DNA of 64,000 nt from Bacteroidales bacterium (GTDB taxonomy: Bacteria > Bacteroidota > Bacteroidia > Bacteroidales > WCHB1-69). Below the pieces are notes generated by a model. That model searched no databases. It worked only from the letters and a program-made list of their open reading frames with translations, and was not told where the DNA came from. The stretch lies in the NCBI GenBank assembly GCA_031553535.1, contig JAVBLM010000019.1, positions 154,128 to 218,127 of the forward strand. Direction: 5' to 3'. Shown here in pieces: positions 2,899-62,855 of the stretch; position 1 is the stretch's first letter, and the number at the start of each line of letters is the position of its first letter. The translations under genes and the position numbers were made by a program.

Positions 2899-3345
2899 CG
2901 GATATACTTTCACCGTATTGTGAAAGTGTTTCGACAGTAGTTTTCATACTTTCACGAAGTAGTGAAAGTATGCCGACAGCAGTTTTCATACTTTCGCAAG
3001 GTAGCGAAAGTGTGCCGACAGTAGTTTTCATACTTTCGCAGGGTAGCGAAAGTGTGCCGACAATGGTTTTCATACTTTCGCAGAGTAGTGAAAGTATGCC
3101 GACAGCAGTTTTCATACTTTCGCAGAGTAGTGAAAGTACGCCGACAGTAGTTTTCATACTTTCGCAGGGTAGTGAAAGTATGCCGACAGCGGTTTTCATA
3201 CTTTCGCAGAGTAGTGAAAGTACGCCGACAGTAGTTTTCATACTTTCGCAGGGTAGTGAAAGTATGCCGACAGCAGTTTTCATACTTTCGCAGAGTAGTG
3301 AAAGTACGCCGACAGTAGTTTTCATACTTTCGCAGTATTATGAAA
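2899..3345. repeat. tandem array A: 42-bp unit x ~10.6, each unit with a 9-bp-stem hairpin
   Basis: The unit is GTTTTCATACTTTCGCAGRGTAGTGAAAGTAYGCCGACAGYA. The anchor TGCCGA occurs at 2971/3013/3055/3097 and onward, exactly 42 apart. The inverted repeat is CATACTTTC/GAAAGTATG. Two unit subtypes alternate in the right half, giving an 84-bp higher-order repeat. The edge units are degenerate. Confidence 0.95.
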
Positions 3346-3692
3346 CCTTCCCCCGATGTATTGGAATAGCTCTGAAACATTTTTTAAAATAAAGCCCAAG
3401 TATCCGGACGATATTAACCTTGTTATCCAAGGCAAATATTTATGCTTATCCTAATCGAAATTCTATCTTCGTTGTAATCGAATGATTATTGATAATGAAA
3501 ATTCTAAAATGAGACTTACATCAATAACACTTTGTTTTAATATTATTACGATTACAAGGGACAAGAAAAAACAACCGAACTTGTTCTAATCGCCTAGCCA
3601 TGAAAGAGAAAGAAAAATTAATCCACAAATCAACTTTTGATAAGTTTATTTGCAAATAAATAGGATCCGGAATATTCCAGGTAAAGACAATT

Positions 3693-4628
3693 TTATTTCT
3701 TTCTATAATGATTTAAAAACCAATCATAGACTTTTGCAATACCTTCTCTTAATTCCGTTTTATGCTTGAACCCGATCGAGCGTAATTTAGTAACATCAAG
3801 TAATTTGCGAGGAGTTCCATCCGGCTTAGAAAGATCATTTACAATATCTCCATCAAAACCGACAATTTCTTTTATCAATAAAGCCAAATCACCTATCCGG
3901 ATATCTTCCCCTGTTCCCACATTTATATGCATTTCCTCCTTATAATGCAACATTAAATATAATAGCGCATCGGCTAAATCATCAACATATAAAAATTCAC
4001 GCATAGGGTTTCCCGTTCCCCATATTACTACTTCATGGGTACCATTGATCTTTGCCTCATGAAACTTACGAATCAATGCAGGTAAAACATGTGATGAATT
4101 AAGGTCAAAATTATCATTAATTCCATACAAGTTTGTCGGCATCGCTGAAATAAAATTACAACCATACTGACGACGATAAAACTTACATAATTCTATTCCT
4201 GCTATTTTAGCAATAGCATATGCTTCATTTGTTTCCTCCAAATAGTCACCCAATAAATATTCTTCTTTTATAGGTTGTGGAGCCATTTTTGGATAAATGC
4301 ATGAACTTCCTAAAAACAACAGCTTTGTAATACCATATTTATATGCAGCATGTATAATATTTGCTTCAATGAGTATATTATCATAAATAAATTCAGCAGG
4401 ATATGTATTATTTGCCAATATCCCCCCTACCTTTGCGGCAGCTAAAAAAACATATTGAGGCCTCTCTTTTTTAAAAAAGACATTTACTGCATGTTGATCC
4501 CGCAAGTCCAATTCTTTCAGGTCCCGTACAAGAATATTATGATAATCATTACGCTCCAAACAACGCATAATGGAAGAACCCACTAAACCGGTGTGTCCCG
4601 CGACATATATTTTTGAATTTTTATCCAT
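3693..4628 (-). CDS. fcl: GDP-L-fucose synthase (GDP-4-keto-6-deoxymannose 3,5-epimerase/4-reductase)
   Basis: 311 aa extended SDR with a GHTGLVGSS Rossmann loop, SSCIYP and the YAIAK catalytic YxxxK. It overlaps gmd by 8 nt. Confidence 0.85.
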
Positions 4629-5715
4629 TTTGTTTGCTTTCTGTTAATACATATTTCATATCATGAGTAACCATTATCTTTACTAATTGCTCAAACGAAG
4701 TTTTTGTAGGGTTCCAGCCTAATACTGTTTTTGCTTTTGTCGGATCCCCTAACAATAGGTCGACTTCTGTCGGACGAAAATAACGTGGATCTACCTCTAC
4801 TATAGCTTCATTTGTTTTAATATCAATTCCTCTCTCATTCACTCCTTCTCCTTCCCAACGAATAGTAATCCCGGCTTCTTGAAAAGCCAATGTACAAAAG
4901 TCACGTACCGAATGCATTTCCCCGGTGGCTATCACAAAATCCTGAGCTTCTTTTTGCTGCAAAATCAACCACATACACTCAACATAATCTCGTGCATATC
5001 CCCAATCCCTTTTTGCATCCAGATTTCCCAGATAAAGTTTCTTCTGTAATTTATGAGCAATACGTGCTGCTCCCAGTGTGATTTTACGGGTAACAAAGGT
5101 CTCTCCCCTTCTTTCGCTTTCGTGATTAAATAGTATTCCATTAGAAGCATACATGCCATAGGCTTCCCTATAATTCTTCGTGATCCAAAAACCATATAAC
5201 TTTGCAACCCCATAGGGAGAACGAGGATAAAATGGCGTTGTTTCCGATTGCGGAACTTCCTGTACCAAGCCATATAATTCCGAAGTCGATGCCTGATAGA
5301 TACGGGTTTTCTTTTCCATACCCAAAATACGTATCGCCTCTAGAATACGTAAAGTCCCTATTGCATCACTTTCTGCCGTATATTCCGGAACTTCAAAAGA
5401 AACTTTCACATGTGACTGCGCCGCAAGGTTATACACCTCATCGGGTTGCACCTGCTGAATAATACGAAGCAAAGACGACGAATCCGTCATATCACCGTAA
5501 TGTAAATTAATATTACGCTCTTTCTTTGTATCTTCAATCCATTGTTCAAAATACAAATGTTCTATACGCCCCGTATTAAAACTTGAACTTCTACGAAGAA
5601 TTCCATGCACTTCATAGTTCTTTTCCAATAAAAACTCGGCAAGAAATGACCCATCTTGTCCTGTAATTCCTGTAATAAGAGCTATTTTTTTACCCATATT
5701 TATTCTATTTATCAA
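4621..5715 (-). CDS. gmd: GDP-mannose 4,6-dehydratase
   Basis: 364 aa, collinear with E. coli Gmd as I recall it ([61 protein letters not shown]). The internal Met at 5697 ([10 protein letters not shown]) is an equally plausible start. Confidence 0.9.
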
Positions 5716-5727
5716 AAAATTATATTA

Positions 5728-6477
5728 TTATTTACAATTAAAGTTATCATTTTTAAAACAGCTCAATTCTTTTAGTTCAGTCTGAGCCTTTTGATAATCC
5801 TGAGGAATACCAATATCAATAAAATATCCATTCGATTGAAAAGCATAAAAAGGGGAAATACCCACATTGGCTTCTAATATATCTTTCTCAAATGAAAATT
5901 TTTCTTTCTGTATTATATTCTCACTTTCAAAAACATGTTTGGACATAACATAAACACCCGTATTGATAAAGCCCCTTTCTATCGCTTTTTTTTCATTAAA
6001 ATTAATAACTCTATCATTTTCTATGTTTAGTGTCCCGTATCGTTCAACATGATACATCTCTTTTACTGAAAGTGTCACCAACGCCTTTTTCGAAAAATGA
6101 AATCCGGCTAACCGGGCTAAATTAACATTAAAAAAGCTATCCCCATTTAACAAGAAAAAATCATTCTGGGAAATAAAGCCAAGACTATTTTTAATCCCGC
6201 CACCTGTACCTAGAGGTACTTCTTCGATAGCATAATCTAATTTAATATTACAATATTGATTACCAAAATAATTTTCTATCACTTCATGCTTATATCCTAC
6301 CGAAAGAACACAATGACGACACCCCTGGTTATTTAAAAAATACAATAAATATTCCAAAAATGGTTTCCCATTAATATCAGCCATGGGTTTGGGAATATCA
6401 TTAACCACAGAACGAAGTCTGGTTCCCTGTCCCCCGACTAAAATAACACATTCATGAATATTTATCTTATCGTCCAT
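5728..6477 (-). CDS. sugar-1-phosphate nucleotidylyltransferase (HddC-like guanylyltransferase)
   Basis: 249 aa NTP_transferase fold with the loop LVGGQGTRLRS...PKPM. It overlaps the upstream GHMP kinase gene by 16 nt. Confidence 0.75.
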   Translation of the reverse strand: MDDKINIHECVILVGGQGTRLRSVVNDIPKPMADINGKPFLEYLLYFLNNQGCRHCVLSVGYKHEVIENYFGNQYCNIKLDYAIEEVPLGTGGGIKNSLGFISQNDFFLLNGDSFFNVNLARLAGFHFSKKALVTLSVKEMYHVERYGTLNIENDRVINFNEKKAIERGFINTGVYVMSKHVFESENIIQKEKFSFEKDILEANVGISPFYAFQSNGYFIDIGIPQDYQKAQTELKELSCFKNDNFNCK

Positions 6478-7487
6478 GTTTCCAATCCATTATTTGTGAA
6501 CTCAAACCGTCGAACGGAACCACCGAATTTCTGAAGTGTATTCACAACTTTATATCTTGTATTTCCCGGGCAATAAAAAAAGATAAATCCCCCGCCTCCT
6601 GCACCTGATATTTTTCCACCACTTGCTCCTGCCTTTACGCCTGCTTCATATAACTCCTCAAAAAAATCGGTAGATATTCCTGTCGCCATTTGTCTTTTAA
6701 ACTGCCAACCCATATTAAAAATACGACCCATATCATCCAAATTTTCTTTCAATAAGGCCTCTTTCATTAAAACGGCTTGTTCTTTTAATTTGTGCATTGC
6801 CTCAATAGGACGTGCATTTTTTTCCTTCACATTTTTCTGCTGTTCCTTAAAAATATTAGTAGAATCACGGCTTGTTTCAGTATAATACAAAATTATATTC
6901 CGGGAAAGTTCATTGATGATCCTGCTTTTTATTCTTAACGGATTAATAATTACTTTATCTTTATCGTAAAATTCCATGAAATTAAATCCTCCGAAAGCAG
7001 CCGCATATTGATCTTGCTTTCCACCAGCCATTGCCATATCTTCACGCTCGATGGAATAGGCCAAGTGCGCCAAATCATATTCTCCAAGTGGCAGTGACAA
7101 CCATTCAGCAAAAGCTCCTAATACAGAAACTACCAACGTAGAAGATGTTCCCAAGCCTGATCCTGCCGGAGCATCTACATAAGTGGATATTTCAAAAGAC
7201 AACGAAGTTTTATGAAAATCTTTTACAACACGGTTATAAATGGCTTTTAACAAGTCAATTTCACCATCTATAGGCAATTGTTCCATCGAATCGTAAATAT
7301 ATGTTTTATTCCGATCTTCCAAATTAAAAACAATCTTTCCATCATTTCGCGGAATAATAGTTGTATAAGCATACAGGCTAATTGTCGCATTTAAAATCGC
7401 ACCTCCATATATATCAGAATAAGGGGATACATCTGTGCCACCCCCTGCTAAGCCTAATCGTAATGGTGCCTTACTTTGAATTTTCAT
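6462..7487 (-). CDS. GHMP-family sugar kinase (HddA / fucokinase-like)
   Basis: 341 aa with N-terminal PLRLGLAGGGTDVSPY, GHMP motif PAGSGLGTSST and C-terminal GKISGAGGGGF. Confidence 0.75.
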   Translation of the reverse strand: MKIQSKAPLRLGLAGGGTDVSPYSDIYGGAILNATISLYAYTTIIPRNDGKIVFNLEDRNKTYIYDSMEQLPIDGEIDLLKAIYNRVVKDFHKTSLSFEISTYVDAPAGSGLGTSSTLVVSVLGAFAEWLSLPLGEYDLAHLAYSIEREDMAMAGGKQDQYAAAFGGFNFMEFYDKDKVIINPLRIKSRIINELSRNIILYYTETSRDSTNIFKEQQKNVKEKNARPIEAMHKLKEQAVLMKEALLKENLDDMGRIFNMGWQFKRQMATGISTDFFEELYEAGVKAGASGGKISGAGGGGFIFFYCPGNTRYKVVNTLQKFGGSVRRFEFTNNGLETWTIR

Positions 7488-7526
7488 GTATCATTAATTT
7501 TATTACAAATGCTATTTACTCAGTCA

Positions 7527-8465
7527 TTATTTTCCTCGTTTCTTAGCAACAACAATCATTTCTTCCCCTATATTCAGGAATGATAATAAATTATAAGCAA
7601 TATTATGCGCTAAAACAAACAATTTCAATACAAACTTAGGTCTTTTTGTTATTTTGTTGAAATATTCCTGTCTTTCAGAGTGAGCTATATCAGACGAAGT
7701 TTGATCTTTCTGTTTTTTCTTTTGTATCCTGGAATAGACAACAAACATTAAGAATAATTTAAATTCTATTGATGATTTGATTTTGACAATATCGAAACCA
7801 TGTCTATCTAAAATAATCGGAATCGTTTTTTTTGAAAAATAATTTACATGCCCTGGCCCGATCATTGTCCAATTTTCCTTCTGACGCTTTGCCACAAAAC
7901 TATCTATTTGGGGAACTTGTATAAAAAGATATCCATCATCTTTTATTAAATCAGAACATTTTTCAAGTACTAAATCAGCATTATTAATATGTTCGAAGAC
8001 ATCCCACATTGTTATAATATCATACGAATTATCAGGTTTATCTAATTCAAAAAAGTCAACATGATCAACAGGAAGATTCAAGTCATTTTTGGCATAAATA
8101 TATGGATTATCCGCTATCTCTATGCCATATATATCATAACCTAACTGTTTTCCCGTATATAGAAAATGTCCCCAACCCGTTCCCAAATCAAACAAAGAAC
8201 CGGATTTTTTATATTTTCGAATGAGCTTATATCGTAGTAAGTTTCGTTGAACCTTCAACCAATTGTTGCCCTGACGAATTTGCTTAAGTTCCTCATCATC
8301 TTTATAATCTTTGTAATCAACAAATTCTTCATTGTTTTGCGGCACGAAATTAAAAGAACATTTTTTACATTCAACTACTACAAATTCTTTCAGATCGTAT
8401 TTCTCAATAAATTGAGACGGATCGTCATTCAAGCAACATTGACATATTATATTTTCTTTTCCCAT
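7527..8465 (-). CDS. class I SAM-dependent methyltransferase with N-terminal zinc ribbon
   Basis: 312 aa with CQCC...CKKC cysteine pairs at the N-terminus and SAM motif I LFDLGTGWGHF. Confidence 0.75.
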   Translation of the reverse strand: MGKENIICQCCLNDDPSQFIEKYDLKEFVVVECKKCSFNFVPQNNEEFVDYKDYKDDEELKQIRQGNNWLKVQRNLLRYKLIRKYKKSGSLFDLGTGWGHFLYTGKQLGYDIYGIEIADNPYIYAKNDLNLPVDHVDFFELDKPDNSYDIITMWDVFEHINNADLVLEKCSDLIKDDGYLFIQVPQIDSFVAKRQKENWTMIGPGHVNYFSKKTIPIILDRHGFDIVKIKSSIEFKLFLMFVVYSRIQKKKQKDQTSSDIAHSERQEYFNKITKRPKFVLKLFVLAHNIAYNLLSFLNIGEEMIVVAKKRGK

Positions 8466-8506
8466 TTTACTTACACATTGTTTAAAATATTTTTCCTCGG
8501 TTAAGT

Positions 8507-9658
8507 TTAATTATTCAACTGTTCATATATAGAATTTATTGTCAGAACAAGTTTATCCCATGTATATTTCTCTTTTTCCTCCCGGATACCATTAGAAAAG
8601 TCCGGTTTATTATTGAGAAATTCCAACATTGCTTTTGTAATCTCTTCTTTTACCGGTTCGACTACGTAACCAACTTTTCCGTTTGGAATAATCTCTGCTA
8701 ATCCACCTACATTAGTGACTAACATTGGCTTCTCAAAATGATACCCTATCTGCGTAACTCCACTTTGGGTGGCACTTTTATATGGTTGGACAATCAAATC
8801 AGCTGCAGAAAAATATTCTTTCACCTGTTCATTCGGAATAAAATCTGTCCTTAGCAATATATCATCAGATAGGTTAAATTTCTTAATAGCATCCAAATAA
8901 GGTTTTTCATTATCATAAAACTCTCCAGCCACAATTAATTTAACAGGAAACTTCCTTAACCGGGGATCCGCAAAGGCTTCTATTAACAAATCAAGCCCTT
9001 TATAAGAACGGATAAATCCGAAAAATAAAAAATAGATATTACCATCATCAAGCCCGAGTCGTTGTAAAGCTTCTTGTTTAGAAAGGATTTCTCCAAAATT
9101 ATCAAATAAGGGATGTGGAGAAAGTTTCTTTACTTTTCGAGGATCAAAATGATCAATATCTTCATAAACAGATTGCGACATTGCTATATAGCCATCTACC
9201 GGTTTTATGAAATATTTGGTTAGTAAGGTATCATAAAAATGTTTTTCATGTGGAATCATATTATCCACAATAGTAATAATCTTTGTATGATGGTTTTTTT
9301 TAACAATTCTTGCAATAGTTCCAAAACAAGGAGCCATAAATGGGGTCCAATACTTAAAAAGTAAAATATCCGGTCTTTGTTTTTTAATACGGTTTCCTAT
9401 TTTTACCCAGTTAAAAGGATTAACAGAATTTACACATACCTCAATATCTAAATCAGGCTTCTCCGAATCAGAGAATTGAGTCTTTCCAGGAAATAGCAAT
9501 GAGGGATACTGCAATGAAAATGTAAGTAACCTTGATATGTCTCCATTCTCGTTAAAAGCACGAGATAAGCGCTCATTAAAAGACGCAAGTCCTCCCCGCA
9601 ACGGATAAGCAGATCCTAAAATAATTATCTTTTTTTGTTTTTTACTCATATTTACCAC
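8507..9658 (-). CDS. glycosyltransferase family 4 (GT-B)
   Basis: 383 aa. The C-terminal half carries a GT1/GT4-like sugar-donor region (SATQSGVTQIGYHFEKPMLVTNVGGLAEII). Confidence 0.75.
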   Translation of the reverse strand: MVNMSKKQKKIIILGSAYPLRGGLASFNERLSRAFNENGDISRLLTFSLQYPSLLFPGKTQFSDSEKPDLDIEVCVNSVNPFNWVKIGNRIKKQRPDILLFKYWTPFMAPCFGTIARIVKKNHHTKIITIVDNMIPHEKHFYDTLLTKYFIKPVDGYIAMSQSVYEDIDHFDPRKVKKLSPHPLFDNFGEILSKQEALQRLGLDDGNIYFLFFGFIRSYKGLDLLIEAFADPRLRKFPVKLIVAGEFYDNEKPYLDAIKKFNLSDDILLRTDFIPNEQVKEYFSAADLIVQPYKSATQSGVTQIGYHFEKPMLVTNVGGLAEIIPNGKVGYVVEPVKEEITKAMLEFLNNKPDFSNGIREEKEKYTWDKLVLTINSIYEQLNN

Positions 9659-9766
9659 TGAATCAGGTTTTCCTATAATAAACTTCTCTATTTACTGAAA
9701 ATAATTCCGCAATCTTTCATATTTTTACTACAGAAGTAAAAATATCATCTTATTATTAGTATAAAT

Positions 9767-11173: not shown

Positions 11174-11359
11174 CTGAATATATATTTTCTAATAACATAC
11201 AAAAGTAAAATAAAATTCCATTCAATCACTCAAAATTTATATTATCCTAATATAATCCCACAGGAAACTTTCTCCGCAATAATATATTTTATCTTATAAC
11301 AAATTAAGAAAATAATGAAATAAATTTACATTTCATCTCATTAATTAGATAAAAAATAC

Positions 11360-11367
11360 TACCTTTG
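11360..11367 (+). promoter_or_regulatory. candidate -7 promoter box (TACCTTTG) for tRNA-Gly/ftsY
   Basis: Matches TAnnTTTG and ends 7 nt before the first tRNA nucleotide. Confidence 0.45.
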
Positions 11368-11373
11368 CACCAT

Positions 11374-11450: not shown

Positions 11451-11478
11451 ACTTTTTATTTATGAACTAACTATTATT

Positions 11479-15302: not shown

Positions 15303-15492
15303 TTAATGCCGGATATTCAAGCATTAAATATATGTAATAAAAGTTAATGTCAGATATTCGGGCATTAAATATATGTGATAAAAGTTAATGCCGGATATTC
15401 AGGCATTAAATATATATGATAAAAGTTAATGTCAGACATTCAGGCATTAAATATATGTGATAAAAGTTAATGTCAGATATTCGGGCATTATA
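15303..15492. repeat. tandem array F: 41-bp unit x ~4.6 with 8-bp-stem hairpin
   Basis: The unit is TTAATGYCRGAYATTCRGGCATTAAATATATGTGATAAAAG. The anchor TTAATG occurs at 15303/15344/15385/15426/15467. The inverted repeat is TTAATGCC/GGCATTAA. Confidence 0.9.
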
Positions 15493-15953
15493 TATATTAA
15501 AAATAGTTGTAGGAAAATAAATCAATATCCGGGACCTTTTATCTTTTATCCTATGAAAACAAATCAAGGCCGGGAATCTATTGTAGATTATTGCCGGCCA
15601 TTATCTGCTTTCAGGGGATAAATGTTCATTTACAGTATAAAATCAAAATATAACTTCATATCAATGGCGATGTTTTCTTTATTATTTACAGAAGTTATGC
15701 AAGATATAGAAATGATGATTAATTCAAAATCCAAGGAGAAGAATTTAAGAAAAATCTGCGGATACCTGCGAAATCTGCGGGAAAAATATTCAGTGAATAA
15801 TGAATAATGAAAAGTGAATGACAAATAAATCCCCTCAACTCCGCAACCTCGAATCCCGAACCTCAAATCTTGTATTAATTTTTATTTTTTAAAACAATTC
15901 TTTCACTGATTTGTTAATAAGTCTGTAAATATATTTAATAAAATATTCATATT

Positions 15954-25049: not shown

Positions 25050-25072
25050 ATTTATTATCATCAACAAATCGA

Positions 25073-25113
25073 GTAGGAAGAAAACAAAGTAGTTTTCTTC
25101 CTACTTTCGTTTT
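25073..25113 (+). terminator. rho-independent terminator of the zinc-ribbon gene
   Basis: 13-bp perfect stem GTAGGAAGAAAAC / GTTTTCTTCCTAC with a 6-nt loop, followed by TTTCGTTTT. Confidence 0.75.
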
Positions 25114-25203
25114 CCGACCTCTCACACCACCGTACGTGCCGTTCGGCATACGGCGGTTCCTTACTTACGATACAACTTTACGATAACAATCCATCAGAAA
25201 TGG

Positions 25204-25542
25204 CTAGTTGGCTCGTTTGAGATTATCGTTGCTCAAGGCACGACTAAGAATAAAACTATGGGCAATATGCCAATAACCCTTGCGGGTATTAGCCCATTCC
25301 CACGCCTTTCTCTTATCAATACCACAGCGTTTGAGATTCTCAAAGCGGGTCTTCACTCTCTTCCAGCATTTCCAGATACACATACGGAGCCTGCTCCTAT
25401 ACCATTCATTCAATGTTTGAAGACGGTTCTTCATATCTGCCAGCTTGAATACTTCAAGCCAACCCAGTATAAAGGAGCCAAGAGAGCTTTTACGCTTCCC
25501 GTAGCCCAGACCGTTACTACGACCGGTCAATTCCTTTTGCAA
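25204..25542 (-). pseudogene. group II intron reverse transcriptase/maturase, C-terminal (X/maturase) fragment only
   Basis: The 112-aa ORF FILGWLEVFKLADMKNRLQTLNEWYRSRLRMCIWKCWKRVKTRFENLKRCGIDKRKAWEWANTRKGYWHIAHS matches the conserved C-terminus of bacterial intron-encoded proteins. The ~300-aa RT palm/fingers region is absent. Confidence 0.8.
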
Positions 25543-25618
25543 GAATACTATTTTTCCCCTTCTTATTTATCCTTTCATTTTCTTATTATCCTGAAAACTT
25601 TACCGGTTTCGCAGGAAA

Positions 25619-25921
25619 AAGAAAATATTTTACTGTTTGGGATAGACATTTTGGGGGAATCTGAAAACATTTTGCCATTTAGTTTGGATATTTTCAGAAG
25701 ATCCGAAAGCAACAAACCATTTGGTTTGGACGTTTCGGAAGATCCGAAAGAAGCAAACCATTTGGTTTGGACGTTTCGGAAGATCCGAAAGAAGCAAACC
25801 ATTTGGTTTGGACGTTTCGGAAGATCCGAAAGAAGCAAACCATTTGGTTTGGACGTTTCGGAAAGACCCGAAAGAAGCAAACCATTTGGTTTGGACGCTT
25901 CGGAAAGATCCGAAAGAAGCA
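25619..25921. repeat. tandem array B: 41-bp unit x ~7 with nested palindrome, inside the intron remnant
   Basis: The unit is GATCCGAAAGAAGCAAACCATTTGGTTTGGACGTTTCGGAA. The anchor ATCCGAA occurs at 25701/25742/25783/25824. The outer inverted repeat is TCCGAAA/TTTCGGA and the inner palindrome is CAAACCA-TT-TGGTTTG. The leftmost units are degenerate. Confidence 0.92.
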
Positions 25922-26528
25922 TCTATATTATATCGAATATTAAGATAAGTTATGAATGATTTTTCCGGAGAGGTTTATTCTTTATTAATGTCCTATCAGA
26001 ACACTTATCAAACAGGCAGGCCTATATCTGTGAGAGACACACTAAGGGGGATATTATCCGTACTTGAAAAAGTCTCAATTTATACCCCGAACTCACATTA
26101 CAATAAGGTTCTGTCCTTCAATACTTGGTAAGGTTCCTGCTGTACATTTTTTTTCATGGGCAGGCTTGTGTCCGTATCTACTATGGCATCGGCTGACTTC
26201 TCACAGCAAGCTTTATACTCCGTGCTTCCGAAAAAAAACATCCGCACGTCTGTGAGACCTCCCCAGTTAAGATTCTATTCTTTCCATCTTATACCTGCTT
26301 GATTTACCATGAACGTTCCCAATAGCTATGGGGCTTTGTTTTGTTTAGCAAACGATCCCACATTCTTTGGCCTTATATCAAGTTTCTGTGCGTCAGGCCA
26401 GATGTTTGCCGCTGACTTCCTTCAGATTCCTTCTCGCGATAGACACCCTTGTCGTTGGCTATACTCTTCCCGCTATCTGGGCGTGTTTAGGACTTGCACC
26501 TGTTAGAATAAAACCATGCTGAACGAAC

Positions 26529-42617: not shown

Positions 42618-42850
42618 CATCCTTCCGGCCGCCTGCCAACTTTGAGAAGTTGCCGGGTTCCTGTTTGAGATTGAAAACAACCTTCCAGGAGTTCCTGGAT
42701 TCCTGTCTGGGTTTTCCAACAGGCTTTTCCGCACGTGGTATTCCCTGTTTGGACTTTCAAACAGGTTCCCAGGAGTTGCTGGATCCCTATTTGGAATTGA
42801 AAACGACCTTCCGGAAGCTCCTGGATCCTCGCCCGGAATTGAAAACCGGT
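42618..42850. repeat. tandem array C: 42-bp unit x ~5.5 (inverted relative of array D)
   Basis: Anchors at 42660/42702/42744/42786/42828 are all 42 apart. Units contain the palindrome CCAGGA-GT-TCCTGG and a TGTTT..AAACA hairpin. The reverse complement of unit 42660-42701 matches array D unit 54696-54737 at 31/42 positions by hand alignment. Confidence 0.85.
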
Positions 42851-42979
42851 TTTTAAGGCGTTTGAAGCCTTTCAGGAGGATTGGCAAAACACATTCCGGC
42901 CTTCTGGAGCGGTTGCCGGTAAATCCGACATGCCTTTCATGGCCGAAAACACGTTTGCCGGAGGCGGACAATAAGCGGT

Positions 42980-54446: not shown

Positions 54447-54654
54447 TTGAGAGGATTTAACGTTACAAATTCAAGATTCAACGTTCAAGATTATAAATAA
54501 TTTTTCTGCATTTTATCTATTTTATCTGCTTTATCTGCTTTATCGATTTTATCAGTTTAATTTTTCCCGCAGACCCCGCAGATTTTCCGCAGATTTTTTA
54601 TTGTAAAATTCGCATTACTAATTCTTAATTCTTAATTTTTAATTCTTAATTCTC

Positions 54655-55150
54655 CAGAGCAGGCGTTCAGATGCCTTAGATACCTGCTTGCAATTCCGGA
54701 CAAAGGTTCAGGAACTCCTGAATACCTGTTTTCAATCTCAGACAAGTATCCGGGAAGTCTCGAAACCCTGTTTCCAGTTCCGGACAATGGTTCAGGAAGC
54801 CCTGGAACCCAGTTTGAAAATTCAAACAAGGAATACAAAAGGGGAAAAACCCTGTTTAAAAATCTAAACAGGGAATATCGCAGATGGAAAACCCTGTTTG
54901 AAAATCCAAACAAGGAATTCCACAGGAGGAAAACCCTGTTTGAAAATTCAAACAGGTAATACCATGACAAAGACTGCCTGTTTGAAAATCAAAACAGGAT
55001 TCATTACGGCAAAGACTGCCTGTTTAAAAATAAAAACAGGGTACATTACGACAAAGGCTGCCTGTTTAGAAATAAAAACAGGGTACACTATGACAAAGGC
55101 TGCCTGTTTGAAAATCAAAACAGGGTCTGTTGCAATGGAAAGAACCGGGA
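54655..55150. repeat. tandem array D: 42-bp unit x ~11.8, two diverged sub-families in one strict register
   Basis: CCTG anchors at 54683, 54725, 54767, 54851, 54893, 54935, 54977, 55019, 55061 and 55103 are all multiples of 42 apart. The right-hand units are GCCTGTTTGAAAATCAAAACAGG+19 nt (inverted repeat CCTGTTT/AAACAGG). The left-hand units carry the palindrome TTCAGGA-AC-TCCTGAA. Confidence 0.93.
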
Positions 55151-55207: not shown

Positions 55208-55500
55208 GAACTTGTCAAAAGTTGACACAAGAATCGATCTTTTGTCAGGGATTATCTCACTACGTTTCGATGCTCTCACCTGCTTCGCGCTCGGGTGCCA
55301 CGTCGCTCGTGCCTCATTCCTGCCTGACAGAGATCAGACCTCGCTCTTAATAACATATTGCCGTCATGCTGAACTTGTTTCAGCATCCCCGTTTTTAAGG
55401 GGATTGCGGATCAAGTCCGCAATGACGCTCTTAACTAATATATTACCATTATCATTTGCGATGAACGAAGTAATCCCTTAAATCAACTTTTGACAACTTT
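55208..55500. mobile_element. MITE-like element copy 2 (293 bp)
   Basis: Left end GAACTTGTCAAAAGTTGA (55208-55225), right end TCAACTTTTGACAAC (55483-55497). The four-way-junction core at 55363-55426 is inverted relative to copies 1 and 3, while the left subterminal arm (TTATCTCACTAC..GATGC.CTCACCTGCTTCGCG) keeps the same orientation. Confidence 0.78.
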
Positions 55501-55673: not shown

Positions 55674-56009
55674 GAACTTGTCAAAAGTTGATATAAAATG
55701 AATAAAGGTTATCTCACTACATGTCGATGCACTCACCTGCTTCGCGTCCGGATGCTTCGTCGTTCCTCCTTACAATGGCGGAAGTGTGTCATTGCGGACT
55801 TGATCCGCAATCCCCTTAAAAACGGGGATGCTGAAACAAGTTCAGCATGACGGTAGCAGGTTTATTCAGAGCGAGAACCGAAATCCGAAGGATTCGGTAT
55901 AGCCAACCACCCGAGCCACGGAGTGTAGCGATTGCATCGACACGTAGCGAGATAACCGAACTTGCGAGCTCAATGGAGTTAACCTCCGGTATCAACTTTT
56001 GACAAGTTC
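55674..56009. mobile_element. MITE-like element copy 3 (336 bp)
   Basis: Perfect 18-bp terminal inverted repeats (55674-55691 and 55992-56009). It has ~30-bp subterminal inverted repeats (GGTTATCTCACTACATGTCGATGCA / TGCATCGACACGTAGCGAGATAACC) and the core at 55788-55851. Confidence 0.82.
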
Positions 56010-56119: not shown

Positions 56120-57589
56120 ATGGGAATAACCTTTGAAAATGCGCTTTTAGTCCTTTCGATTTTACTGTTTGTTTCCCTTATCGGAGGGAAAACATCTTAC
56201 CGGTTTGGCGTTCCCGTATTAATTTTTTTTCTTGCTTTAGGAATGATAACCGGTTCGGAAGGTCTTGGCGGTATTTATTTTGATAATCCCAATGTTGCCC
56301 AGAACTTAGGGATCGTCGCCTTGAATTTTATTCTTTTTTCCGGCGGGCTGAGTACCAATTGGAAGTTTATAAAACCCGTTTTATGGCAAGGAATCAGTTT
56401 ATCTACATTAGGGGTATTACTTACGGCTATTTCTGTAGGTCTCTTTGTCTGGTTACTGACAGATTTCTCCATCTATGAAGGATTATTATTGGGTTCGATA
56501 ATATCATCAACCGATTCTGCTGCCGTTTTTTCTATTTTACGTTCTAAAAACTTATCATTGAAAGGTTATTTGCGTCCTGTGTTAGAATTAGAAAGCGGAA
56601 GCAACGATCCTATGGCTTATGTTTTGACGATTACGTTTCTAACACTTATCACAACTCCGGAAATGAGTTTATTGGGAGCGATTCCTATCTTTCTGCAACA
56701 AATCGGACTCGGTATAATATTTGGATTTGCAATGGGATGGATCGGGAAAAAAGTAATTAATAATATACGGTTAGATTACGAAGGAATGTACCCTGTGTTA
56801 ATGATCGTAATCATGTTTTTTGCTTTCTCATTTACTAATTTCCTGGGAGGAAACGGATTCCTGGCTATTTATTTATCTGCAGTATATCTCGGAAATCAAG
56901 ATATTATACATAAACAACAAATTATAAAGTGGTTTGACGGGTTTGCATGGTTAATGCAGATTTTGTTATTCCTAACGCTGGGGCTTCTTGTTTTTCCTTC
57001 CCACCTTATCGCAGTAGCAGGAATAGGATTGCTGATATCCCTGTTTTTAATGTTTGTAGCACGTCCAATCAGTGTATTCATCAGTTTATCATTTTTCAAA
57101 ACATCGATACGTTACCGTAGCTTTATTTCATGGGTAGGACTCCGGGGTGCGGTTCCCATTGTATTTGCCACCTACCCCATGATTGCGGGCTTGCCTATTG
57201 CCGAGACAATTTTCAATATTGTATTTTTTGTTTCGTTAACTTCCCTGTTTTTGCAGGGAACTACCTTATCGCAGGTAGCAAAATGGATGGGATTACTTGA
57301 AGAAGATGTTCCCAATGTGGATATGCCTCTGACCATTCTAGAAAATGATAATATCCGTTCTAAATTAACGGAAATTGTACTTACCCAGGATAGCTTTGCC
57401 ATTAATCGACGAATTGTAGATTTAGAAATACCGAAAGATATTCTAATTGCATTGATTCATCGGGGAGACGAGTATCTGATTCCGAATGGATCTACCGAAC
57501 TGGAGGAAGGTGACCAGTTGTTTTTAGTATCGGGAGATCAAAAAGCAATTTATCGTGCGTTTTATAATGATATTGATGAAGATGAATAG
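56120..57589 (+). CDS. potassium/proton antiporter (CPA1, NhaP2/CvrA-like) with C-terminal TrkA_C domain
   Basis: 489 aa with ~12 TM helices of Na_H_exchanger type (SSTDSAAVFSILR) and a C-terminal RCK_C-like domain (LIPNGSTELEEGDQLFLV). Confidence 0.85.
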   Translation: MGITFENALLVLSILLFVSLIGGKTSYRFGVPVLIFFLALGMITGSEGLGGIYFDNPNVAQNLGIVALNFILFSGGLSTNWKFIKPVLWQGISLSTLGVLLTAISVGLFVWLLTDFSIYEGLLLGSIISSTDSAAVFSILRSKNLSLKGYLRPVLELESGSNDPMAYVLTITFLTLITTPEMSLLGAIPIFLQQIGLGIIFGFAMGWIGKKVINNIRLDYEGMYPVLMIVIMFFAFSFTNFLGGNGFLAIYLSAVYLGNQDIIHKQQIIKWFDGFAWLMQILLFLTLGLLVFPSHLIAVAGIGLLISLFLMFVARPISVFISLSFFKTSIRYRSFISWVGLRGAVPIVFATYPMIAGLPIAETIFNIVFFVSLTSLFLQGTTLSQVAKWMGLLEEDVPNVDMPLTILENDNIRSKLTEIVLTQDSFAINRRIVDLEIPKDILIALIHRGDEYLIPNGSTELEEGDQLFLVSGDQKAIYRAFYNDIDEDE

Positions 57590-59666
57590 AACAAATGTAA
57601 TTTCCGTTGCAATACTTTTAATTCACATTGTTGTTATTATATTGTATCATGTTTTTGGATACATTGGCCATTACGGATACGATGATATACAGTATGCAAA
57701 ACTGTCAAGCGATTTAATAAATGGCCAGATAGACTATAATGATCACTTTGTATATAGAACTCCGGTTATTCTACTTACGGCATTATCCTATCTGGTTTTT
57801 GGAATCAATGACCTTGCGTCCTCTCTTCCGTCGCTTTTTATTACCATAGGAATTCTTATATGCATCTTCTTTTTATTAAAGGAAAAAGGGAACATTCCAT
57901 TAATAATAGGTTTGTCTTTAACTACATTCTCGAACTGGTTTATATTTTATTCCGATAAATTAATGCCGGATATATATGTCGCCTTTTTTGTTATACTATC
58001 CCTATTCATTTTACATTCGTATAAATTTAAAACGGCAAAGAAAAAACCATTTCTATATGCTTCCTTATTTTCATTGGCCTTATTTTTTGGCTTCTTGTCA
58101 AAAGGCACAATTGTATTGATATTACCACTCTTACTTTATTATCTTATCGTAGATATTTTATGTAAAAGAGATATTCGATTCTGGGTATATACCCTGTTTA
58201 CAGGGTTAGCATTTCTTGTGATCTATTTCTTTATTATATGGTTGTTAACCGGAGATTTTTTCAAGCGGTTTGATGCTATCACAAGCAATAGTTATTTGAA
58301 TTTATGTAGTTATGATCAGCAATCCTGGAAAGTCCTGTTAAAAAGAATCACTATTGACTTTTTTATGTTAATGATTCATCAGGGAATGATAACCGGTTTT
58401 ATTTTTGTTTTAGCATTCCTTCTTCGCAGGAATACTTTTTCCTATTACAAGCTGGATGATTCTTTTTCGTTTTTCCTTATTTCCGCTCTGATTCTTTTTC
58501 TTTCCTCTAATTTTATGACGATATCTATATCTTCATATTCTCCAATGTGTTTAGATCCCCGGCATTATTTATTCCTGATACCTGTTGTGGCTGTGCCTGC
58601 GTCATTAATTATCACCGGTTTTATAAAAGAAAAGAAATACGCCTTTCAGATAATAGGCATACTGCTATTAATAGCTGCGATTGCCTTTGTTACAAAAAAT
58701 AGTTCCTGCTGGAAATTATATTTGCCGTTAACTTTATTATTCGGGATATATTTCTTTATTAAAGACAGCAATAAATACCGAACTGTTTTTATCCTCGGTT
58801 TTATTTTTATCCTGGCAATCATTCCTTTTGACATGATAAGATACGCACAAAAGGTAAATTATCCTGAACAAAGAGAAATAATCAACCAACATATATTATC
58901 AATAAATGAAGATTGTTACATCATAACAGATGAAGTGCAAAACCGGTTAGGGAATTATTATTGTGGATTTAATAATAATTCGAATATCCATTTCCTGTCA
59001 TACCATCAATTTGATATCGACTCCCTGGATATGAACAAAAGGAAGATACTATATTTGAATAACTACACCTGTAATTTGTCCGGTTATGATTTTAATGACT
59101 TACCCTATTATGCACAGATAATCGACACGGCAAATATCCTGCTCTTTGCAGATAAAGAACTGGGCATCTCTATTTATGAAATGAATACCCTTTCAGACCC
59201 TTCTTCTACAGGAATTTTACTTTTAGAATCATCTGCCTCCTTCGAACATGGCGTTCTTCCCCATTGGAATATCAACGATAATGAATTAGTTAATAAAGAT
59301 GGAAAACGAGTGAATAAAGTGACGGAGTATTCCGCTACATTCTCCTATCCTGTTGATTCGTTACTTGCTGATCTAAATTCGAATTTATTAATATCATGTG
59401 AATTGCAATCATATTTCGAAGATAAAACAGAAGCAATGCTGGTAATTTCCATTGAGGATCACGAAAATTCATATATCTGGAAGGGAATTAATGTTAATAA
59501 ATATATCCGGGCATATTCAAACTGGCAATTGCTGAAATTGAATACGGTCATACCTGAAAATGAAATAAAAGAACATTCGATAATGAAGATCTATTTATGG
59601 AATAAAGACAAGAAAACAGCTTATATCGATGATTTTGTAATTAAAATAATTACTTCGGAAAACTAA
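57582..59666 (+). CDS. GT-C fold membrane glycosyltransferase (family 39 / ArnT-PMT-like) with C-terminal soluble domain
   Basis: 694 aa from ATG 57582 (an ATGAATAG overlap with the antiporter stop). It has >10 TM helices, an acidic first-loop motif YGYDDIQY, and a ~270-aa non-membrane C-terminus. Confidence 0.6.
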   Translation: MNRTNVISVAILLIHIVVIILYHVFGYIGHYGYDDIQYAKLSSDLINGQIDYNDHFVYRTPVILLTALSYLVFGINDLASSLPSLFITIGILICIFFLLKEKGNIPLIIGLSLTTFSNWFIFYSDKLMPDIYVAFFVILSLFILHSYKFKTAKKKPFLYASLFSLALFFGFLSKGTIVLILPLLLYYLIVDILCKRDIRFWVYTLFTGLAFLVIYFFIIWLLTGDFFKRFDAITSNSYLNLCSYDQQSWKVLLKRITIDFFMLMIHQGMITGFIFVLAFLLRRNTFSYYKLDDSFSFFLISALILFLSSNFMTISISSYSPMCLDPRHYLFLIPVVAVPASLIITGFIKEKKYAFQIIGILLLIAAIAFVTKNSSCWKLYLPLTLLFGIYFFIKDSNKYRTVFILGFIFILAIIPFDMIRYAQKVNYPEQREIINQHILSINEDCYIITDEVQNRLGNYYCGFNNNSNIHFLSYHQFDIDSLDMNKRKILYLNNYTCNLSGYDFNDLPYYAQIIDTANILLFADKELGISIYEMNTLSDPSSTGILLLESSASFEHGVLPHWNINDNELVNKDGKRVNKVTEYSATFSYPVDSLLADLNSNLLISCELQSYFEDKTEAMLVISIEDHENSYIWKGINVNKYIRAYSNWQLLKLNTVIPENEIKEHSIMKIYLWNKDKKTAYIDDFVIKIITSEN

Positions 59667-61100: not shown

Positions 61101-61200
61101 TTTCGAATGAAATGTCCATGAAATAAAAGTCCCACACTCAACGGAAATAATTAGGAAGGACATTCCATGTGATCTTAATTCAAAATAAAAATATAAGCAG

Positions 61201-62346
61201 ATGAAATTTGATGTTTTTGACTTCTTTTCCCAGGTACTTATTATTACGTTTGTCGTAATCATGATGATGGTACTCATTGAATTTCTCAATGTCAAAACAC
61301 GAGGGAAATTGCTTGTTTTACTGGAAAAGCATCCAAGAATCCAGATCTGGATTGCCGCATTGCTGGGGCTGATTCCCGGTTGTATTGGAATCTTTGCGGT
61401 AGTGTCTTTATATACTCATCGTTTAGTGACTTTCGGAGCCTTGCTGGCAGCTGCCATTACCAGTTTTGGAGATGAAGCTTTCTTTATGATTTCACTCATC
61501 CCAAAGCAAACGCTGATCCTTGTCGTTATCTTATTTGGAATTGCTATCATAGCAGGATACATTACCGATTTGATTTCACACAGGAAAACAGCACAACAAA
61601 TCGACCAGGAAGATACGTTTGATGTACACCAGCACGATTCCTGTACAACACATACCGGAAAAGAAACAAAATATATTTTCGGTAAAGTTTCCATACACCG
61701 CGTTATTTCCATAGTAGTGGTTGGAATGTTCATTATAGGAATTACAACCGGTTCTCTGGGTCATGATCATTCCATCGCGGACAGTTTTTCTCTTCATTCG
61801 CATATAGAAGATCAAGAGGTAACAGATTGTGACCATAGCACCCATGATCACCGGCATATGGAGCATCATCATAGCCCGTTTTCAGGGGAGAATCTGGTTT
61901 TCCTTATCATTGCCGCATTCACATTTATCTTATTACTCACCGTAAATGATCATTTCTTCGAAGAACATATCTGGAATCATGTCATCAAGAAGCATTTTCT
62001 GAAAATTTTCATCTGGGTATTCTCTATCATGCTGCTTATAAAAATCGCCGGATTGTTTATTGATGTGGAAGCCTTTTCTTATAGCGCATGGGGAAAGGTC
62101 ATTTTGTTATTCTTCGCTTTATTAATAGCATTAATCCCTGAGTCGGGGCCGAATTTGATTATTTTGTTCCTTTTTATCGATGGAGTTATTCCATTTAGTA
62201 CTTTACTTGCAAATTCAATCTTACAGGAAGGCCATGGCGGATTGCCGCTTATCGCAGAAAAACCCAAGGATTTTTTAAAATTGAAGGTTATCAAGTTTAT
62301 AATTGCTTTAGTTGTCGGTTTGTCGGGATTGTACTTCGGGTTTTAA
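61201..62346 (+). CDS. putative 10-TM metal (manganese/heavy-metal) transporter with His-rich central loop
   Basis: 381 aa with two 5-TM halves separated by a loop rich in His/Asp (HDHSIADSFSLHSHIEDQEVTDCDHSTHDHRHMEHHHS). It resembles the ArsP_2 / 'putative manganese transporter' family from memory. Confidence 0.55.
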   Translation: MKFDVFDFFSQVLIITFVVIMMMVLIEFLNVKTRGKLLVLLEKHPRIQIWIAALLGLIPGCIGIFAVVSLYTHRLVTFGALLAAAITSFGDEAFFMISLIPKQTLILVVILFGIAIIAGYITDLISHRKTAQQIDQEDTFDVHQHDSCTTHTGKETKYIFGKVSIHRVISIVVVGMFIIGITTGSLGHDHSIADSFSLHSHIEDQEVTDCDHSTHDHRHMEHHHSPFSGENLVFLIIAAFTFILLLTVNDHFFEEHIWNHVIKKHFLKIFIWVFSIMLLIKIAGLFIDVEAFSYSAWGKVILLFFALLIALIPESGPNLIILFLFIDGVIPFSTLLANSILQEGHGGLPLIAEKPKDFLKLKVIKFIIALVVGLSGLYFGF

Positions 62347-62469
62347 TCAGTACAATACAGTCTATTTAAAAATATTGTACTTGCAATAAATGCAATCCCA
62401 TCGAAACGGAGCAAAATAAACCGTTTGTATTTATTCCCTCATTACGGGATGTCAAGGAATAGTATATGT

Positions 62470-62855
62470 TTCCCCCTGTAACATCTGTATAAACCTTTCC
62501 GAGAACTGGGACACCTATAAACGAGAGTAAATATATCTTTCCCAGAATTGGGACACCTATAAACGAGGATAAATATACCTTTCCCAGAGTTGGGACACCT
62601 ATAAACGAGGATGAATATACCTTTCCCAGGATTGGGATACCTCTAAACGAGAGTGAATATATCTTTCCCAGGATTGGGATACCTCTAAACGAGAGTGAAT
62701 ATATCTTTCCCAGGATTGGGATACCTCTAAACGAGGATAAATATACCTCTCCCAGAGTTGGGACACCTCTAAACGAGGGTGAATATACCTTTCCCAGGGT
62801 TGGGATACCTCCAAACGAGAGTGAATATATCTTTCCCAGAGCTGGGAAACATTCA
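62470..62855. repeat. tandem array E: 42-bp unit x ~9 with short palindrome
   Basis: The unit is CTTTCCCAGRRTTGGGAYACCTMTAAACGAGRRTRAATATAY. The anchor TCCCAG occurs at 62540/62582/62624/62666/62708/62750/62792/62834. The palindrome is TCCCA-GAAT-TGGGA. Confidence 0.93.

Follow-up and report, generated by a model that had tools for sequence, protein, structure and literature searches.

Results

Six non-coding tandem-repeat arrays

The stretch of DNA analysed here (the window) is a 64-kb housekeeping region from a Bacteroidales bacterium, Bacteroidota-like and poorly sampled. Pfam scans of its open reading frames (ORFs) and of Logan gene calls returned only housekeeping families. Among the window ORFs that these scans covered, none proved to be a transposase, RAYT, Nop/Tas or cas gene, and no ParA/ParB domain lies near any array. 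The closest homologue of one neighbouring gene is only 54% identical. An HU-family gene lies at 49052-49336 and is not linked to the arrays.

In intergenic or dead DNA of this region lie six non-coding tandem-repeat arrays, as the original prediction had it: five (A, F, B, D and E) are clear and were recovered by TRF, and the sixth, C, which is related to D but decayed, was confirmed by its lag signal and its homology to D. Array A (2878..3381) holds ten near-identical 42-bp units at 2920-3339 (TRF: 2920-3335, period 42, 9.9 copies, 90% matches), with an 84-bp higher-order repeat; a single decayed unit borders these on the left (2878-2919) and another on the right (3340-3381). Array F (15303..15590) consists of about five 41-bp units (15303-15507; TRF: 15303-15497, period 41, 4.8 copies, 89% matches) followed by a degenerate pair (15507-15590), and array B (25593..25921) of a core of 41-bp units (25716-25838) edged on both sides by units of 42 bp (TRF: 25675-25921, period 41, 6.0 copies, 94% matches). 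Array D (54655..55150) comprises eleven 42-bp units at 54683-55144, which fall into three sub-families, D1, D2 and D3 (TRF: 54683-55126, period 42), and array E (62476..62855) has some 8.5 units, each 42 bp long, and a higher-order repeat of 126 bp (TRF: 62489-62847, period 42, 8.5 copies, 89% matches). The anchor words from which the periods had been read were verified in three arrays: TGCCGA in A (2971, 3013 and onward), TCCCA..TGGGA in E (eight sites, 62540 to 62834) and CCTG in D (ten sites, 54683 to 55103). Array C (42618..42869) falls under the TRF threshold; its five or six decayed 42-bp units are in exact register, with CCTG or CCTA at 42660, 42702, 42744 and 42786, and its best autocorrelation lags are 126 (0.60) and 42 (0.55), against ~0.35 at unrelated lags. 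A faint lag-42 signal runs on past this array to ~42920. The arrays are annotated without strand, all units within them are in direct orientation, and no solitary copies of the palindromes or units were found elsewhere in the window.

Short-read contigs in Logan, drawn from two runs, match the window at 100% identity and break at 2987 and 3306 (array A), at 15461 (array F) and at 54641 (just left of D). Contigs that are identical and break at the arrays indicate that the repeats are real in the reads; these independent contigs thus bear out their presence, the copy numbers being those of a single assembly. No relative of the arrays was detected in viral contigs, JGI metagenomes or plasmids.

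Genomic setting

The flanking genes are co-directional, divergent or convergent, and no consistent position of the arrays relative to genes was found, four of the six lying 120-350 bp downstream of a same-strand gene. Neither terminal inverted repeats nor target duplications were detected, the 120-bp flanks having no inverted or direct match above shuffles, and homology between the flanks in different intergenic regions is confined to C and D.

Array B lies within a degenerate group II intron on the minus strand (25072..26499, ends approximate), which was identified by Rfam (RF02001 at 26272-26443, RF00029 at 25068-25158), by a GIIM domain and by alignment. The intron retains its 5' domains and domains V-VI, and its maturase is reduced to the last 112 amino acids (25204-25542). 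By alignment to a full-length relative (L013), ~640 bp of DNA with essentially no homology, the array among it, stands in place of ~1.1 kb of the reverse transcriptase (RT) ORF, and a tblastn search for the RT was negative. An array within a decayed intron that lacks its RT ORF demonstrates that these repeats can sit in non-functional DNA.

A unit length of 42 bp

Sliding autocorrelation of the 64-kb window over periods 8-199 yielded only periods of 41 and 42 and their near-multiples, and the non-redundant TRF list for periods 26-500 contains only 41, 42 or 126, whereas 20 block shuffles of the window produced no tandem repeat with a period above 25. The predicted enrichment at 41-42 bp therefore holds within the window, but its two values are not equivalent: the edge units of array B (25597-25680 and 25807-25870) and the degenerate pair to the right of array F (15486-15590) repeat at lag 42. 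Because the older edge units of both 41-bp arrays keep this spacing, 42 bp is the likely ancestral length in all arrays, and 41 bp is derived, the cores of B and F having been taken over by a unit 1 bp shorter.

The proposal that spacing rather than linker sequence is constrained agrees with array D, in which the arms (CCTGTTT-N8-AAACAGG) are conserved, with hardly any variation at positions 1-7 and 16-22, and the 20-bp linker is almost random between sub-families, yet the register is exact, with zero indels in 11 units. The register of array C is likewise intact despite ~55% identity between neighbouring units. From these alignments, it is spacing that looks constrained, and not the sequence of the linker.

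Unit sequences and hairpins

Pairwise comparison revealed no similarity beyond shuffles among the units of A, B, E, F and C/D, upholding the claim that they are mutually dissimilar; a search of the window shows these five unit sequences to be locus-specific except for the C/D family. Units of C match those of D in reverse complement at 30/42 positions (0/300 shuffles as good), and the two arrays are homologous at ~68% identity over ~150 bp with the register kept, C belonging in reverse complement to the D1 family. The family thus occupies two loci 12 kb apart, at which sequence has diverged while length and palindrome have been kept.

Each unit sequence has its own inverted repeat. In array A, the 11-bp arms GTGAAAGTATG and CATACTTTCGC have 14 nt and 6 nt between them; array F has the hairpin TTAATG(C/T)C-N9-GGCATTAA; and nearly the entire unit of array B is an imperfect hairpin with an outer stem TGGTTTG/CAAACCA and an inner stem TTTCGGA/TCCGAAA. 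The unit of array C carries two palindromes (CCTGTTT..AAACAGG and TCCAGGA..TCCTGGA), and array E combines unvarying TCCCA/TGGGA arms with a variable 4-nt loop. With stems of 5-11 bp and loops of 4-14 nt, the shared design that had been proposed comes down to one inverted repeat per 42-bp unit.

By folding energy, the unit hairpin is significant for A, B, C, D2 and the C-variant of F (z -2.7 to -4.7). The scores are -3.1 for A, -2.7 to -2.9 for the F C-variant, -4.7 for D2, -3.7 (plus strand) and -4.3 (minus strand) for B, and -3.3 and -4.4 for C. The hairpin of array E is not above chance (z -0.9 and -1.1) and that of D3 is not significant (z -1.4), such that the expected hairpin in every unit is present by this measure in only some of them. 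Compensatory changes in the stems, for which 16 C/D units were checked, were not found: the stem arms of array D are conserved rather than covarying, and transitions in stems yield G-T on either strand without bias. There are no T-tracts 3' of the hairpins, and no array was matched by an Rfam 15 covariance model, whether at gathering score or with E <= 1.

Discussion

Proteins and RNAs as possible products of the arrays

Forty-two base pairs correspond to 14 codons, several frames remain open across A, C and E, and the copy numbers of the arrays rest on one assembly. That the arrays code for proteins with 14-residue repeats, or are artefacts of assembly, nevertheless seems extremely improbable. 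No repeat protein could be read from the 41-bp cores, variability among units lacks the 3-base periodicity of codons, no frame is open throughout array D, and the array ORFs have no Pfam domain beyond spurious summed matches and, in translation, no homologue among 5.8 billion proteins; on these grounds, a tandem-repeat protein-coding region was rejected. Nor are graded edge decay and higher-order repeats features of an assembler artefact, and contigs that are identical up to the array edges and break inside the arrays are what is expected of true repeats. It is also very unlikely that the arrays function as structured RNA, either as processed guide-like or small-RNA arrays or as stem-loops stabilizing or terminating neighbouring transcripts. 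Units do fold into stable hairpins, and the location of four arrays downstream of same-strand genes would suit such a role, as would the resemblance to TIGR arrays, which have regular units of 36-42 nt and stem-loop variants, and whose repeats vary from locus to locus (PMC12045711). TIGR and CRISPR arrays, however, carry unrelated variable spacers beside tas or cas genes, whereas the units here are near-identical (89-94% over their full length in A, B, E and F) or, as in the linkers of D, gradually diverging copies of one another. We therefore concur that this is not CRISPR, as no cas gene was found among the scanned window ORFs. A TIGR-Tas array was rejected as well: there are no paired variable blocks, the stem-enclosed segment of D is 20 nt when, by inference from PMC12045711, at least ~28 nt would be needed for two boxed 9-nt spacers, and no Nop domain or tas gene occurs among the ORFs scanned. 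With no Rfam match, no compensatory substitution in the C/D units, unbiased stem transitions, no T-tracts after the hairpins and inconsistent gene contexts, the suggested role as RNA stem-loops is unsupported.

Possible mobile elements or binding platforms

Mobility offers a second route to hairpin arrays, in which non-autonomous elements would be built up by repeated insertion beside an existing copy, moved in trans by a hairpin-specific enzyme from another part of the genome: a Y1/HUH RAYT, an IS200/IS605 TnpA or a recombinase. Hairpin-centred units within intergenic DNA, the two loci of the C/D family, the entry of array B into an intron (or its replacement of part of one) and the activity of other MITE-like elements in the same regions all speak for such an origin, but we consider it rather improbable: C/D excepted, the unit sequences are locus-specific, every unit is in direct orientation, and there is no leader or tail, terminal inverted repeat, target duplication or transposase in the window, nor any copy in the viral contigs, metagenomes or plasmids, and higher-order repeats with decayed edges fit amplification in situ better than serial insertion. 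The known elements of this type differ accordingly. REP/BIME (REPIN) sequences resemble the arrays as short palindromic units in intergenic DNA that may occur in clusters; REPs form high-copy families of one sequence, usually alternate in orientation within clusters, and are tied to a RAYT gene. The units here are direct and locus-specific, with no solitary copies and no RAYT in the window, and a REPIN-RAYT identity is not supported. The boxB module of BOX elements is ~45 bp long. In Streptococcus pneumoniae, BOX (boxA-boxB(n)-boxC) is likewise intergenic, non-coding and hairpin-forming, with a tandem boxB module whose number changes by slippage or unequal crossover (PMC3049150), but it occurs with the same sequence at >100 loci, framed by boxA and boxC as terminal inverted repeats. 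Here the unit sequence is particular to each locus and framing modules are lacking, flanks carrying no shared repeats above shuffles, and the proposed membership in BOX or BIME is unsupported. Kinship with BrickBuilt of Porphyromonas gingivalis, also raised in the original prediction, is likewise unsupported: both are intergenic, spacer-less minisatellites with imperfect repeats in a Bacteroidota genome, yet BrickBuilt repeats a 23-nt unit of a single sequence family found at 19 loci and has conserved leader and tail segments bearing terminal inverted repeats (PMC4596501), as opposed to five unrelated, locus-specific units of 41-42 bp whose flanks carry no inverted or direct repeat above shuffles. 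Somewhat less improbable, though still unlikely, is that the arrays are phased platforms on which each palindrome would be bound by a dimeric or structure-specific protein, be it nucleoid-associated, partition-like or a decoy-bound regulator. The arithmetic is sound, since 42 bp amounts to four helical turns and would place bound proteins on one face, and unrelated units share one period; array D, with its conserved arms, free linker sequence and exact linker length, fits sequence-specific recognition, the arms being conserved rather than covarying. The window also contains the HU-family gene, unlinked to the arrays, and there is precedent in sopC of the F plasmid, which has 12 x 43 bp repeats, each with a 16-bp inverted-repeat site for SopB (PMC3177203). 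In architecture alone, the arrays conform to the sopC type, as direct repeats of about four helical turns made of an inverted repeat and a linker. However, sopC is one array of one sequence beside sopAB, bound by SopB, whereas here six chromosomal arrays carry five sequences with no partition genes nearby. Five unrelated palindromes of very different geometry (arms of 5-11 bp, spacers of 4-14 bp) would need five readers or one structure-specific reader, and they have no single copies elsewhere in the window; the 41-bp cores of B and F drift ~34 degrees per unit, breaking strict phasing; no parA/parB or other dedicated binder adjoins any array; and array B sits within a dead intron. A sopC-type centromere with a parA/parB operon and a single cognate site was rejected.

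A proposed family of hairpin minisatellites

The explanation that we favour, tentatively and at a little short of an even chance, is that the arrays are lineage-specific non-coding minisatellites of one architectural family, a 42-bp unit around an inverted repeat. They have the attributes of generic bacterial minisatellites or VNTRs (head-to-tail units of 10-100 bp, a homogenized core, decayed edges and higher-order repeats), and cores that are homogenized, edges that are decayed and higher-order repeats of 84 and 126 bp are the mark of arrays that grow, shrink and homogenize in steps of whole units. We infer slippage, promotion by hairpins and dispersal from one strain and 64 kb of its genome: arrays would turn over by replication slippage and unequal sister-strand exchange, and the hairpin would promote misalignment, such that expansion continues in arrays keeping their palindrome and gives way to decay in those losing it, of which C seems to be one. 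Arrays might now and then seed new loci and then diverge past recognition, and unit length would persist because change occurs in whole units and indel variants are rarely fixed. The shared 42 bp would be mainly inherited, and this length may be reinforced by a putative factor that reads structure or length; no gene-specific regulatory role is implied. Against inheritance alone, five families with zero detectable similarity differ in unit length by at most 1 bp, and the linker of D is saturated with substitutions and free of indels. A length lock that persists despite such divergence, with a linker lacking indels, points to active constraint on length and palindrome.

Many tandem repeats of the same period and different sequence within one genome are also found in cyanobacterial STRR, which have 7-bp units without hairpins, in contrast to the 42-bp units here, which show no 7-bp sub-periodicity. 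The window does have an excess of heptamer micro-arrays (9 observed versus 2.2 expected) in the same intergenic regions as the arrays, where MITE-like elements also occur, indicating that this genome both tolerates and generates intergenic repeats.

Arrays with a common period

Tandem Repeats Finder (TRF) recovered array A at 2920-3335 (period 42, 9.9 copies as assembled, 90% matches), array F at 15303-15497 (period 41, 4.8 copies as assembled), array B at 25675-25921 (period 41, 6.0 copies as assembled), array D at 54683-55126 (period 42, with higher-order rows of 84 bp and 126 bp) and array E at 62489-62847 (period 42, 8.5 copies as assembled). Array C fell under the TRF threshold; its top lags were 126 (0.60) and 42 (0.55), against approximately 0.35 for unrelated lags, and its CCTG/CCTA words stand at 42660, 42702, 42744 and 42786. 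After removal of overlaps, all tandem repeats in the window with a period of 26-500 had a period of 41, 42 or 126, sliding autocorrelation of the window (periods 8-199) placed 41, 42 and their near-multiples at array loci only, and 20 block shuffles of the window contained no period above 25. The shared 41-42 bp period of the original prediction, whose anchor-word coordinates were all right on re-check, is thus confirmed far above chance for one 64-kb window of one strain. An assembly artefact is contradicted by Logan (short-read) contigs from two runs, SRR23967707 and SRR23967709, which are identical to the window and whose ends lie at 2987 and 3306 (array A), 15461 (array F) and 54641 (just left of D). 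Short-read assemblies of the lineage break at the arrays.

Roughly one array is present every 10 kb in this core part of the chromosome, which includes the rpoBC and ribosomal-protein operons; arrays B and C have the rpoBC, ribosomal-protein and tuf cluster between them. Ordinary chromosomal genes neighbour every array, among them ApbE, sugar epimerases, an AraC-type regulator, an esterase, a CNNM transporter, a DUF6261 protein, a U32 peptidase, a Na/H exchanger, an ArsP_2 exporter and RecR. Gene orientation is co-directional around A, D and E, divergent around F and C, and convergent around B, and we found no consistent placement of arrays relative to promoters or 3' ends. Transposase, cas, Nop/Tas and ParB genes were absent among the window ORFs scanned. 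Intergenic regions of 0.8-1.7 kb, as present in the window, are unusually long for a bacterium. Two further features of the region are a 703-aa ORF (57555-59666, plus strand) between the Na/H exchanger and acetyltransferase genes, which matches no Pfam family even at E 0.01, and a giant protein gene (>4,245 aa; FG-GAP, Cadherin-like, Ig_7, Big_9) that begins just past the left end of the window and occupies the extra 9 kb recovered there (positions 2091-12024 of the recovered sequence, L009).

Five unit families and their original length

Consensus units were compared in every circular permutation and on both strands against shuffles. Units A, B, E, F and the C/D group showed no similarity to one another above shuffles, whereas C and sub-family D1 of array D match at 30/42 positions in reverse complement (equalled by 0/300 shuffles), a kinship also recovered by blastn between intergenic regions. 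On the strength of these two comparisons, the unit sequences are best described as five independent ones, with one family (C/D) at two loci; a single origin for all units is rejected, since the circular two-strand comparison exceeds shuffles only within C/D. Solitary copies of the array palindromes were not found elsewhere in the window. By our own estimate, the chance that four more families would lie within 1 bp of the first is about 1e-6 under an assumed null in which periods are spread evenly over roughly 10-100 bp.

The 41-bp period appears to be derived, because the edge units of array B and a pair of units right of array F still repeat at lag 42. In one-unit windows, the core of B has lag 41 and both of its edges (25597-25680 and 25807-25870) have lag 42; similarly, a degenerate pair at 15507-15590, directly right of F's 41-bp core, has lag 42 with 27/42 positions identical and retains a ATATCCGGGAC-like half of the F hairpin. 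Read most simply, the six arrays would all have started with 42-bp units, and a 1-bp-deletion variant would later have been amplified in two of them.

Unit anatomy and turnover

An inverted repeat is present in every unit, in differing forms: arms of 11 bp in A and 8 bp in F, a nested hairpin over nearly the whole unit in B, two alternating palindromes in C and D1, CCTGTTT-N8-AAACAGG in D2 and D3, and TCCCA-N4-TGGGA only in E. Folding energies differed significantly from those of shuffled units for A (z -3.1), B (-3.7, -4.3), C (-3.3, -4.4), D2 (-4.7) and the C-variant of F (-2.7 to -2.9), and not for E (z -0.9), D3 (z -1.4) and the T-variant of F. Sub-periods of 7 bp or 21 bp within units were absent from the best lags. 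Homogenised cores carry higher-order repeats, of 84 bp in A, 82 bp in F and 126 bp in both E and C, and units at the array edges show progressive decay, a combination that classically marks turnover in steps of whole units, by slippage or by unequal exchange.

Array D, with 11 units in three sub-families, is the most informative: entropy is almost zero in its arms (positions 1-7 and 16-22), its 20-bp linker is close to random, and 0/11 units have gained or lost a base. Across the 16 C/D units there was no compensatory double change at any base pair, which argues against selection at the level of structure; the C/D arms are conserved as sequence. The original prediction had proposed that length is constrained and sequence is not; this finds support in C/D and is plausible in general.

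An array inside a degenerate group II intron

Array B lies in a degenerate group II intron (25072-26499, minus strand) situated between convergent genes, with its 5' domains and domains V-VI intact; Rfam matches to group II intron domains lie at 26272-26443 and 25068-25158, minus strand. The sole surviving part of the maturase is its C-terminal domain, a 112-aa ORF at 25204-25542. The closest full-length relative (L013) is located in a Bacteroidales conjugative element (L013/L014) and has 79% maturase protein identity. In the alignment of the two introns, the 5' 360 nt and 3' 490 nt are conserved, and the RT-encoding part of the relative, ~1.1 kb, is replaced by ~640 bp of essentially non-homologous DNA that includes array B and holds no trace of RT coding sequence. 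The B unit has no recognisable origin in the intron's own sequence, and has no significant match to the full-length relative. Because B sits in a dead intron, arrays can reside or arise in non-functional DNA, and this therefore argues against a locus-specific regulatory role.

Comparison with known repeat systems

A coding function is rejected: the 41-bp cores cannot hold a frame, no frame stays open along the whole of D, the variability lacks 3-base periodicity, and array ORFs yield only spurious summed Pfam hits. Concatenated array-encoded peptides had no homologues among 5.8 billion proteins. As originally stated, the arrays are not CRISPR, since they lack unrelated spacers and no cas genes occur among the window ORFs scanned. 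TIGR (TIGR-Tas) arrays were considered because they have 36-42-nt units, locus-specific repeats and stem-loop variants (PMC12045711); unlike these, the arrays have no paired variable spacers, their stem-enclosed segment is too short (20 nt), and no Nop-domain gene is adjacent among the ORFs scanned, so that TIGR fails on all three. To repeat finders, such arrays nonetheless resemble questionable CRISPR or TIGR arrays: D has the appearance of 22-bp repeats separated by spacers of 20 bp.

A common sequence is what normally defines intergenic repeats of bacteria (REP, BOX, BrickBuilt and MIRU, for example), whereas the arrays share unit length and a palindrome and have no detectable similarity. 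The minisatellite-MITE BrickBuilt consists of a 23-nt unit with one sequence at 19 loci, and has a leader and a tail with terminal inverted repeats (PMC4596501). Inverted or direct repeats in the array flanks did not exceed shuffles, and a MITE architecture is rejected by these flank alignments, which reveal no terminal repeats. The kinship with BrickBuilt or BOX/BIME that had been suggested therefore reduces to an architectural analogy. In the literature, we found 41-bp or 42-bp tandem repeats only in eukaryotes. We class the arrays as bacterial intergenic hairpin minisatellites, a family defined by unit length and not by sequence; this assessment is provisional because its basis is one 64-kb window from one strain.

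Relatives of the arrays and of their host

For the U32 peptidase encoded beside an array, a single database entry is identical (from an NCBI contig of 337,626 bp and from Logan), and the next match among 5.8 billion proteins is 54% identical; named matches are from Bacteroidales, Bacteroidota and Ignavibacteria at 45-49%, and a scan of a genome collection gave 42% identity at best. Look-ups by exact protein gave either no match or nothing but short Logan contigs from this one strain, and the organism is carried by only the two SRA runs and the one NCBI contig (337.6 kb); a literature search with the run accessions yielded no publication. By these protein comparisons, the lineage is isolated, deep and barely sampled, and probably belongs to the Bacteroidota. 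The contigs with the closest U32 homologues (L011 and L012) contain no 41-42 bp arrays, and at only 3-4 kb hold too little sequence for a test. In L011, an iteron-like word, (A/T)CTGCACTATTT, recurs several times within the 830-bp region (2031-2861) downstream of the gene for the 54% homologue. When viral contigs were scanned for the patterns of the five unit types, the only match was a chance 17-mer; scanning metagenomes for a pair of neighbouring C/D palindromes separated by a free gap turned up three repeats, all unrelated (periods ~39, ~57 and 55-65 bp), and blastn with all arrays found no relatives in plasmids.

Origin and maintenance of the unit length

We favour in-situ turnover of hairpin-bearing minisatellites by slippage and unequal exchange, a process that we infer from the pattern displayed by the arrays. 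Hairpins promote replication misalignment, and for this reason arrays with a palindrome would go on expanding and homogenising and those losing it would decay: hairpins would be selected at the level of the array, with no need for a cellular function. Arrays would now and then seed new loci, as C and D may exemplify, and then diverge while keeping unit length and palindrome. Inheritance alone is not a fully satisfying explanation for the common 42 bp. Some constraint on length seems likely from the unit sequences, because no more than 1 bp of length separates the five substitution-saturated families, and because the linker of D is randomised without an indel.

The main rival to such turnover is by analogy with the F-plasmid centromere sopC, in which each of 12 x 43 bp repeats holds a 16-bp inverted-repeat site (PMC3177203): the arrays would be phased sets of protein-binding sites. 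That the arms of D are conserved in sequence and do not covary fits this reading, but the five palindromes are unrelated and very different in geometry, the amplified cores are 41 bp, no binder gene lies beside the arrays among the ORFs scanned, and one array copy sits in a dead intron. Hairpin elements mobilised in trans are less likely, as are RNA arrays; no array matched Rfam at gathering score or at E <= 1.

We consider it improbable, though of consequence if true, that the lineage possesses a sequence-independent ruler, either a protein that reads hairpins or cruciforms with a four-turn footprint or an enzyme or process that makes tandem units of a fixed ~42 bp out of whatever sequence is present locally. 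Unrelated sequences would then be shaped time and again into hairpin arrays of 42-bp units, and these would be a new class of bacterial repeat with a templated length; the putative ruler would be comparable in kind to Cas1-Cas2, which sets CRISPR repeat length, but would operate without spacers. 

A genome-wide spike at 42 bp, if true, would mean that length is measured or preserved independently of sequence, implying either unusual concerted evolution or a factor that reads structure or length.

Other repeats in the same intergenic regions

A MITE-like element of 260-330 bp occurs at 16961-17221, 55212-55496 and 55678-56005 (inverted), with a partial copy at ~14400-14560; two of the copies lie directly right of array D. 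Its ends are a palindromic repeat, TTGTCAAAAGTTGA (11 matches with <=2 mismatches, against 1.6 expected), and its interior has a conserved double hairpin, GTCATGCTGAA..TTCAGCATC and TTGCGGATCAAGTCCGCAATGAC. Solo TIR-like motifs are present at 3630, 43647 and 63053, the last of which overlaps a likely -33/-7 promoter.

Intergenic heptamer micro-arrays (3-5 copies, of differing sequences) are found at 14299, 14621, 15794, 17837, 17888, 17949, 51033, 51156, 54469 and 54619: nine have period 7, against 2.2 expected, besides three with period 14. Nonamer arrays are likewise in excess (7 against 2.75 expected). With one period and many sequences, the heptamer micro-arrays resemble cyanobacterial STRR repeats and parallel the 42-bp arrays; 42 is 6 x 7, yet the 42-bp units have no 7-bp sub-period. 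Clusters of a CCGCAGATTT motif at 54567-54598 (plus strand) and 15752-15783 (minus strand), with a single copy at 16887 (minus strand), adjoin heptamer repeats in the intergenic regions of arrays D and F. The order is common to both loci (F in reverse complement), running from heptamers to CCGCAGATTT to array, an arrangement that may be a composite repeat island or else a leader that the two loci share.
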